Of a DNA stretch of 5,821 nt, positions 423 to 1,293 are shown piece after piece (the stretch's first letter is position 1; every line of letters starts with the position of its first letter). Below the pieces are notes generated by a model. That model made no database searches, was not told where the DNA came from, and worked only from the letters and a program-made list of their open reading frames with translations. The translations under genes and the position numbers were made by a program. Origin of the DNA: a virus (taxonomy: Duplodnaviria; Heunggongvirae; Uroviricota; Caudoviricetes); IMG/VR virus record IMGVR_UViG_2660238499_000005, one strand, 5' to 3'.

Positions 423-564
423 CAGGCTGTTTTTTGTTTCTTCCGCCTACCTGTAATACTGATTGCGAGTTGAATGGTTTGATTTGTCATTATCAATTCC
501 TATTGGTATTGCAATGAATGAATAATATCAATGCGTATTAATCCAAGCAATAGCAAAACGTGTT

Positions 565-592
565 TTGACCATCAATACGCAAGCGTATAAAT
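565..592 (+). promoter_or_regulatory. Putative sigma70 promoter of the repressor gene (-35 TTGACC, -10 TATAAA/ATAAAT)
   Basis: TTGACC at 565-570 and TATAAA at 586-591 (or ATAAAT at 587-592), spacer 15-16 bp. The ATG at 601 lies about 9 bp after the -10 and has no Shine-Dalgarno, so the transcript would be leaderless or nearly so. Confidence 0.4.
575..588. promoter_or_regulatory. Operator-like inverted repeat ATACGC-AA-GCGTAT overlapping the -10 element
   Basis: 6-bp arms that are exact reverse complements around a 2-bp centre, seen directly in the sequence. An extra GCGTAT half-site lies at 534-539. Position is consistent with autoregulation, but binding is not shown. Confidence 0.3.
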
Positions 593-600
593 TAAAACTT

Positions 601-1293
601 ATGAAAAAAGAAACTCTTGCTGATCGCTTAAACCTAGCGATGGAACAATCTGGAATGTCTCAAGGCGCTCTTGCAAAGGCGTCTGGCGTAGCTCAACCCA
701 CAATCTGGAGACTGACAAGCGGCAACGCTCGCGGCTCAACAAAAATTGTTGAAATAGCTAATGCATTGGGTGTTCGAACAGAATGGCTCTCATCAGGCAT
801 AGGCCCGATGAGAAATGACGGTCAACAATCAGGGAAGCCTGCTGTCAGCCATTCAAAATACTTCAAGATTGACGTTCTTGATATAGAAGTGAGTGCCGGG
901 CCGGGAGTCATCAACCGTGAGTTTGTAGAAGTTCTACGCTCGGTTGAGTACTCGTTTGACGATGCTCGTCACATGTTCGATGGTAGGAAGGCAGAAAATA
1001 TCCGCATCATTAACGTACGCGGTGACAGCATGTCAGGAACGATCGAACCAGGTGATCTGCTGTTCGTTGATATCACGGTTAAATCTTTCGACGGTGATGG
1101 TATCTATGCGTTTCTGTATGACGACACCGCCCATGTAAAGCGCCTGCAAATGATGAAGGATAAGCTACTGGTTATCTCTGATAACAAGAGCTACTCACCG
1201 TGGGACCCGATCGAGAAAGACGAGATGAACCGGGTATTCATATTCGGTAAGGTTATTGGGAGCATGCCGCAGACGTACAGAAAACACGGATAA
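601..1293 (+). CDS. CI/LexA-like prophage repressor: N-terminal XRE-type HTH plus C-terminal S24 peptidase domain (SOS-cleavable)
   Basis: HTH segment MSQGALAKASGVAQPTIWRLTSG; Ala-Gly cleavage-site candidate in EVSAGPGV; catalytic Ser in GDSMSG and Lys in HVKRL with LexA/lambda-CI-like spacing; C-terminal FGKVIG motif. The ORF track opens at TTG 565; ATG 601 (MKKETLADRL...) is preferred as the start. Confidence 0.85.
   Translation: MKKETLADRLNLAMEQSGMSQGALAKASGVAQPTIWRLTSGNARGSTKIVEIANALGVRTEWLSSGIGPMRNDGQQSGKPAVSHSKYFKIDVLDIEVSAGPGVINREFVEVLRSVEYSFDDARHMFDGRKAENIRIINVRGDSMSGTIEPGDLLFVDITVKSFDGDGIYAFLYDDTAHVKRLQMMKDKLLVISDNKSYSPWDPIEKDEMNRVFIFGKVIGSMPQTYRKHG

Follow-up and report, generated by a model that had tools for sequence, protein, structure and literature searches.

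In phage lambda, the repressor gene cI is transcribed from the repressor promoter (PRM), which diverges from the lytic promoter PR, and the right operator (OR) contains three operators of 17 bp, spaced 24 and 23 bp apart, of which the promoter-proximal one is placed between the two PRM hexamers and the middle one adjoins the PRM -35 hexamer. The lambda repressor combines a helix-turn-helix (HTH) domain with an S24 domain, and its gene is followed by accessory genes and then by the leftward promoter PL with three more operators. The lambda cI transcript is the classic leaderless mRNA, a status that has been established experimentally (PMC10491246). A leaderless mRNA has also been demonstrated for PaaR2 of the cryptic prophage CP-933P, by 5' RACE and N-terminal sequencing (PMC8630535), and the cI-bstA operon of the Salmonella prophage BTP1 has been found to have a single start in differential RNA sequencing and to be among the most highly expressed prophage genes in lysogens (PMC7067206). 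In this paper, we have analysed a stretch of 5,821 nucleotides from a tailed virus (IMG/VR record IMGVR_UViG_2660238499_000005; hereafter the window), in which a preliminary description had placed a leaderless-type repressor promoter with an operator palindrome over its -10 hexamer. Our results suggest that positions 491-600, upstream of a gene for a CI-like repressor, constitute the OR of a degraded lambdoid prophage and an ordinary lambda-like repressor control region, in which three predicted sites of the form ATA-N8-TAT serve as repressor operators; we put the probability of this explanation as a whole at about 0.75. What the sequences themselves show are the elements and how well they are conserved, the return of the sites at PL, the domains of the repressor and the truncation of the cro gene.

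The locus shares with lambda the whole arrangement outlined above, including the lack of a Shine-Dalgarno (SD) sequence and an ATG at the expected +1 position, the discriminator being 6 nt long in lambda and 7 nt here. It differs from lambda in that its operators are 14-16 bp long and are spaced 25 and 25 bp apart, its PRM -35 hexamer is the near-consensus TTGACC instead of the poor TAGATA, helix 2 of its repressor's HTH is devoid of acidic residues for positive control, and cro is truncated in this copy; furthermore, the similarity of its repressor to lambda CI is confined to fold families. The N-terminal domain matches structures of the 434 repressor, which is its closest solved relative by sequence (1per and 2r63; E about 1e-5). 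The 434 operators are likewise 14 bp long, their outer triplets or quadruplets being conserved and their centres variable, and the 434 repressor and Cro also share recognition-helix residues; however, the 434 operator has the form ACAA-N6-TTGT, and only about 60 residues of the two repressors are similar. The PaaR2/YdaS switch of CP-933P in E. coli O157:H7 resembles this locus in belonging to a cryptic lambdoid prophage with divergent PR and PRM and with repeated operators at OR and PL, but PaaR2 lacks an S24 domain, has unrelated 18-bp repeats as operators and is coupled to a toxin-antitoxin pair (PMC8630535).

The closest relatives are the P22-like Salmonella phages BTP1, ST104, SE1 and ST160 and the lambda-like E. 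coli phages 4A7, Lambda_4C10 and PhiR30_1, which have in common with the window a repressor of 86-100% identity, the recognition helix, the sites at OR and at the left operator, and the promoter hexamers. Unlike the window, these phages are intact and possess cro, cII and replication genes, and they differ in the accessory genes after cI (bstA in BTP1). The window thus has the recognition helix and the operator set of the BTP1/ST104/4A7 immunity type, and, judged by sequence, this type is common to PhiR30_1, PhiR68_2 and 4A7 of E. coli, BTP1 and ST104 of Salmonella, and ST11-VIM1phi8.2 of Klebsiella. A published operator definition for the BTP1/4A7 immunity type was not found in a literature search.

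Predicted operators and their conservation

The three predicted operators are 14-bp sites spaced 25 and 25 bp apart, which we designate O-a, O-b and O-c, the equivalents of OR1, OR2 and OR3 (Table 1). The site nearest to the repressor gene, O-c, is the exact 6-2-6 inverted repeat ATACGCAAGCGTAT (ATACGC-AA-GCGTAT) at 575-588, whose presence over the -10 hexamer had been pointed out in the preliminary description and is confirmed by sequence reading and by a pattern search. Its centre lies about -19.5 from the ATG, and the site fills the PRM spacer and touches the -10 hexamer; in BTP1, O-c has one mismatch. A further GCGTAT had been listed at 534-539 as a half-site; it is indeed present, but at 533-538, and it is no stray half-site, being the right arm of O-a. 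A repeat finder placed 524-542 and 574-592 in one group, as copies of a single unit, and comparison of these with the PL region yields six 14-bp sites of the ATA-N8-TAT form, three at OR and three at PL. The middle site (550-563), which had been missed altogether, is centred about -44.5 from the ATG and ends one base before the PRM -35 hexamer, and its sequence type is found again at the left operator of the Salmonella phages. The idea that operators here might allow autoregulation gains support from the conservation and the cross-genome test described below, although with three sites 25 bp apart and not as first drawn.

The conservation of the region was followed across phages of E. coli, Salmonella (Salfasec13b and BTP1) and Klebsiella (ST11-VIM1phi8.2), whose repressors are 82-86% identical to that of the window. 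All 14 positions of both O-b and O-c are invariant across three lineages, as are 12 of the 14 positions of O-a and all six positions of the PRM -35, PRM -10 and PR -10 hexamers. The sequences in between are variable: conservation amounts to 1/6 and 2/4 in the spacers, 3/7 in the discriminator and 13/31 in the cro leader. A weight matrix trained on the OR sites only was then applied to three complete phage genomes, each 40-48 kb in size (about 136 kb in total), and gave nine matches with a score of at least 13.5 outside OR, seven of which fall in three short PL regions, where they are spaced 19-26 bp apart. In the window, the left operator is found 1.8 kb downstream of OR, and its two promoter-proximal sites overlap the TTGATA and TATTAT hexamers of a PL-like promoter in exactly the register that O-b and O-a have on PR, which identifies the two promoters as the equivalents of PR and PL. 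The HTH and the operators also covary, in that phages with an identical or near-identical recognition helix (QPTIWRL) share the OR, while PhiR5_1, which has the same C-terminal domain with a different HTH, has an unrelated intergenic region. The predicted layout of three operators over PR and PRM, with a second set at PL, is thus that of a lambdoid switch.

The strict ATA-N8-TAT pattern occurs eight times in the window against 2.2 expected, a number reached in 1 of 200 shuffles, and four of the eight occurrences are predicted operators. Single elements are not beyond chance, and it is their recurrence and conservation that give them significance.

Repressor promoter, start codon and alternative readings

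A consensus scan detected a single plus-strand promoter-like site upstream of the repressor gene, TTGACC-17-TAAATT (565-593), which matches the consensus at 9 of 12 positions and ends 7 nt before the ATG; the identical call was obtained in BTP1. The promoter had initially been read as TTGACC/TATAAA. These two hexamers do occur at 565-570 and 586-591, and there are 9 bp between the latter and the ATG at 601, but TAAATT (588-593) with its 17-bp spacer is the better -10 hexamer. Since it leaves 7 nt before the ATG, transcription is expected to start at T600 or A601. The broader claim of a lambda PRM-like promoter adjoining the ATG of an S24-type, presumably SOS-cleavable repressor is upheld by the family assignment, the conservation and the cross-genome operator test.

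The reported lack of an SD sequence before the repressor ATG is borne out, as the best anti-SD duplex within the 20 nt upstream reaches only -0.1 kcal/mol; the values for cro, orf87, kil, gam and the DUF1382 gene in the window range from -4.2 (the cro stub) to -10.3 kcal/mol, and that of orf147 is about zero. An ATG start codon is present in all relatives, and no pairing is predicted for the first 13 nt of the repressor mRNA. The distance between the -10 hexamer and the ATG is invariant in the three host genera, with only the three discriminator bases mentioned above conserved, and the TT before the ATG, which provides a pyrimidine(-1)/purine(+1) start motif, is kept in all three. An AUG start without an SD sequence, which is a feature of leaderless mRNAs, is thus found here, and the promoter geometry, which recurs in HK639 and HK75 (see below), makes it likely that the repressor mRNA is leaderless or nearly so.

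Two other readings concern the promoter and the start codon. If the promoter were TTGACC-15-TATAAA, transcription would start near 598-599 and give a leader of 2-3 nt, hence an mRNA that is not strictly leaderless. Although TATAAA matches TATAAT at five of six positions and is conserved as well as TAAATT, its 15-bp spacer falls outside the 16-18 range of active σ70 promoters, it lacks the near-invariant T at position 6, and the combination was not listed by the scan, whereas the 17-bp alternative, which has four bases in common with TATAAA, makes the conserved T(-1)A(+1) coincide with the ATG; we therefore regard this promoter as improbable. On the other hand, the repressor might be a protein of 242 aa translated from the in-frame TTG at 565 on a leadered mRNA from further upstream, in which case TTGACC and the palindrome would be coding sequence. 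The reading frame from 565 is open in the window as well as in the Salmonella and Klebsiella relatives, and the TTG start is used in the deposited annotations of BTP1, PhiR30_1 and Salfasec13b. However, TTG 565 has no SD sequence (+0.2 kcal/mol), the plus strand upstream of it holds no promoter-like site, and it is itself part of the conserved -35 hexamer of the only predicted promoter. Moreover, of the 12 additional codons, the last three vary non-synonymously between lineages (LKL, LNI and FEI), while the changes after the ATG are mostly synonymous; the alignments of the homologues with 40-45% identity (HK639, SfII and HK75) begin at residue 2 of the protein started at the ATG, and the NCBI pipeline calls the 230-aa form. 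TTG 565 is accordingly quite unlikely to be the repressor start.

It could further be argued that the palindrome at 575-588 is an accident of an AT-rich promoter, or that another protein binds there, for a perfect 6-N(0-4)-6 palindrome arises in about 20% of the shuffles of the 110-bp intergenic region, and a second, differently built palindrome, CAAAACGTGTTTTG, is present at 554-567. Yet the 14-bp pattern is repeated at 25-bp intervals at OR and appears again at PL, the site at 575-588, in contrast to its flanks, does not vary between three host genera, and the matrix trained on OR finds PL genome-wide; the predicted sites have an identical register on PR and PL, and where the HTH is exchanged (PhiR5_1) the whole OR region is exchanged with it. 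With these findings, an accidental or foreign palindrome becomes very unlikely. As to CAAAACGTGTTTTG itself, it is a perfect 6-2-6 palindrome over the middle operator and the PRM -35 hexamer, and in PhiR30_1 its arms are kept and its centre is altered. It was also considered as the true middle operator, but the left operator of the Salmonella phages, in which ATAGCAAAACGTAT is followed by TGAT, does not retain it, and the ATA-N8-TAT register was preferred.

Several points count against the proposed lambda-like control region or parts of it. The frequency of perfect palindromes in shuffled intergenic DNA has just been mentioned, and promoter-like sites are no commoner in the window than in shuffles (three in 2.7 kb against 6.1 expected). 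The reading frame from TTG 565 is open in all relatives, and several deposited annotations start there. Positive autoregulation, which is suggested by position only, is doubtful: the centre of O-b, at about -44.5 from the ATG, lies about 2.5 bp further away than that of lambda OR2 (-42), helix 2 of the HTH (SQGALAKASGV) has no acidic residues, and the PRM -35 hexamer is already near consensus. In lambda, as is known from the pc mutants, CI contacts σ70 through acidic residues of helix 2. Finally, transcription could start a few bases upstream and give a short leader, and a mapped start of the BTP1 cI-bstA operon (sought at coordinates 379525-379529) was not found in the supplements of PMC6333337, PMC5856525 and PMC7067206, which give gene coordinates and expression values.

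Truncated cro gene, left promoter and prophage context

An intact divergent cro gene, which belongs to the lambdoid CI/Cro switch, is the feature in which the window falls short, making it a truncated member of the group. The preliminary description was right that no convincing cro-like HTH gene lies divergently, but the stub of 14 codons at 449-490 had been overlooked, and the intact relatives, i.e. E. coli chromosomes and phage genomes deposited as complete, encode a Cro of 75 aa. In E. coli 2014C-3307 and phage PhiR68_2, the gene for this HTH protein, annotated as Cro, diverges from that of the repressor, with 110 bp separating the two ATG codons, and the recognition helix of Cro (AQPTVWRW) resembles that of the repressor (AQPTIWRL), as expected of proteins with common operators. 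In the window, homology to the intact relatives begins at 447 and homology to the tail-fibre assembly gene (tfa) reaches 451, and the 5-bp overlap (447-451, CTACC) fits one internal deletion that runs from codon 15 of cro into the middle of tfa. This junction was found in 1 of 5,426 complete E. coli genomes, namely strain EC2641. The missing cro is thus due to a deletion in this remnant and is no feature of the system.

The -35 hexamer of the orphaned PR-like promoter, TTGCTT, has 3/6 consensus matches and is too weak to be listed by the scan, and both hexamers are conserved. T528, inside O-a and one base upstream of the PR -10 hexamer, is private to the window (G in all relatives examined) and may represent a neutral substitution within an orphaned promoter. 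The Rfam family IS009 (RF02111) gave a full-length match on the minus strand (289-489, 177.7 bits), which was considered as a known small RNA transcribed from the orphan PR and rejected, as the family corresponds essentially to a fragment of tfa, which makes up the well-aligned part, and over the cro stub the alignment of its first 35 positions is poor. IS009 seems to represent part of prophage tfa genes and to have no link with the operator region.

Table 1. Predicted control elements and genes of the window (a dot marks elements to which no strand is assigned)
Feature	Position	Strand	Remarks
tfa gene, 3' fragment, fused to cro stub	255..451	-	Pfam Caudo_TAP
cro stub, first 14 codons (MTNQTIQLAISITG)	449..490	-	SD AGGAA at 497-501
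PR-like lytic promoter, orphaned	522..550	-	TTGCTT (550-545), 17 nt, TATTAT (527-522); read by eye
O-a (OR1 equivalent), ATATCAATGCGTAT	525..538	.	overlaps PR -10 by 3 nt; contains GCGTAT 533-538
O-b (OR2 equivalent), ATAGCAAAACGTGT	550..563	.	abuts PRM -35, overlaps PR -35 by 1 nt; 14/14 invariant, three lineages
PRM-like repressor promoter, -35 hexamer TTGACC	565..570	+	consensus scan; unchanged in relatives from E. coli, Salmonella and Klebsiella
O-c (OR3 equivalent), perfect palindrome ATACGCAAGCGTAT	575..588	.	in PRM spacer, overlaps -10; 14/14 invariant
PRM-like repressor promoter, -10 hexamer TAAATT, 17-bp spacer	588..593	+	consensus scan, also called in BTP1; 6/6 positions invariant across three lineages
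7-nt discriminator, then predicted start T600 or A601 (A of ATG)	594..601	+	expected from σ70 geometry
CI-like repressor, 230 aa	601..1293	+	Pfam HTH_3 (N-terminal) and Peptidase_S24 (C-terminal)
Two open reading frames, function not assigned (phrog_4231, phrog_3556)	1376-1639 and 1652-2095		in repressor operon after cI
Intrinsic terminator closing repressor operon (cI and the two reading frames)	2170..2193	+	prediction scan
Left operator, sites 2306-2319, 2326-2339 and 2351-2364	2306..2364	.	spaced 20 and 25 bp; ATA-N8-TAT reading
PL-like promoter TTGATA-17-TATTAT	2339..2367	+	10/12 matches; conserved in relatives; predicted to drive kil, remnants of gam and other leftward early genes

The repressor is 100% identical to the cI product of the deposited complete phage genome PhiR30_1. 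It has the HTH and the S24 domain of a lambdoid-switch repressor, with an Ala-Gly site and a Ser/Lys dyad, and the predicted self-cleavage residues (Ala99-Gly100, Ser143 and Lys180) are invariant in the alignment. Deposited annotations of 242 aa begin at the in-frame TTG, which coincides with the PRM -35 hexamer, in the records L012 (BTP1; 3045-3770), L009 (7061-7789) and L004 (1465-2190), and the PhiR68_2 repressor has been annotated from an internal Met (212 aa).

The window as a whole represents a gutted prophage of the lambdoid type, located at a tRNA-Arg gene (3738-3811, minus strand), and its gene order is that of lambda: cro stub, OR, cI, two accessory reading frames, terminator, PL, kil, gam, int and tRNA-Arg. 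The left part consists of an IS1 end, a fragment of a pin-type invertase gene and the minus-strand 3' fragment of tfa; past the repressor come the two reading frames of no assigned function, the terminator, the PL-like promoter, kil, a truncated gam, the DUF1382 gene, an integrase fragment, the tRNA gene and fimZ. The two reading frames occupy the accessory slot between cI and PL, which is taken by rexAB in lambda and by bstA in BTP1; the one at 1652-2095 has a hydrophobic stretch at its end, and a comparison of both with defence families gave no convincing match. The PL leader of about 280 nt (2368-2644) before kil contains no N-like gene, and a search of this leader for an antiterminator RNA of the HK022 put type was negative, with a fold no better than shuffles (z = -0.15) and no Rfam match. 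The window has what look like IS1 ends on either side (1-57 and about 5765-5821). On the left, the sequence agrees with the end of an IS1B copy annotated in strain EC2641; the right end, which we take to be IS1 from its resemblance to the inverted repeat of that element, interrupts a fimbrial gene downstream of fimZ. EC2641 is unlike the window at this end, as IS1 follows directly after fimZ there.

Proposed working of the switch and its implications

Reading binding, activation, the order of site filling and the exact transcription start from the layout of these elements, we infer that a repressor dimer would bind each of the three 14-bp sites, whose centres are 25 bp apart. Occupation of O-a and O-b, on the -10 and -35 hexamers of the leftward PR-like promoter, would shut off lytic transcription, and a dimer on O-b, next to the PRM -35 hexamer, might stimulate transcription of the repressor gene. 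O-c, placed between the PRM hexamers, would turn PRM off at high repressor levels and, in the intact phages, upon binding of Cro. RNA polymerase at PRM would start at T600 or A601 and produce an mRNA with a leader of 1 or 0 nt, to be translated without an SD sequence as is that of lambda cI. The suggested autoregulatory function of the operators thus has two halves, of which negative autoregulation through O-c appears to be the better supported.

The more distant HK022/HK75 and HK639 phages, whose repressors are 40-45% identical to that of the window, bear on how far this design extends. In HK639 (45% identity), three 14-bp palindromes of the ATAACC-N2-GGTTAT type (430-443, 455-468 and 479-492) are spaced 25 and 24 bp apart, the last one overlapping the best plus-strand -10 hexamer, which ends 6 nt before the cI ATG; in HK75 (HK022 type, 40% identity), the corresponding hexamer ends 7 nt before the ATG, and the annotated oR3 lies over the start codon. 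The operator sequences of these phages are different from those of the window, which indicates different immunity specificities. The repressors of BTP1/4A7, HK639 and HK022/HK75 have thus diverged to 40% identity and differ in operator specificity. Tentatively, a start codon at the promoter +1 position may be a conserved and selected design of this clade of S24-type repressors (BTP1/4A7, HK639, HK022/HK75 and probably SfII) and no peculiarity of lambda. In the immunity type of the window, with its near-consensus PRM -35 hexamer and a repressor without the acidic activation patch, the switch might rely on negative autoregulation at the perfect OR3-like palindrome in place of the positive autoregulation of lambda. 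If this were true, it would represent a distinct wiring of the classic switch, and such a wiring might have to do with the unusually high rate of spontaneous induction that has been reported for BTP1.

The region is of the same kind as the OR/PRM regions of lambda and 434. It leaves the current understanding of phage switches unchanged. It does provide a concrete operator and promoter map for a medically relevant prophage immunity type, which includes BTP1 of invasive Salmonella ST313, ST104 of DT104 and prophages of Klebsiella ST11, and it corrects the repressor start in several deposited annotations from TTG (242 aa) to ATG (230 aa). With cro deleted from codon 15 onward, the switch of this gutted prophage would be locked in the repressor state, and its intact repressor should still silence PL, and with it the toxic kil gene, and confer superinfection immunity to phages of the same type.

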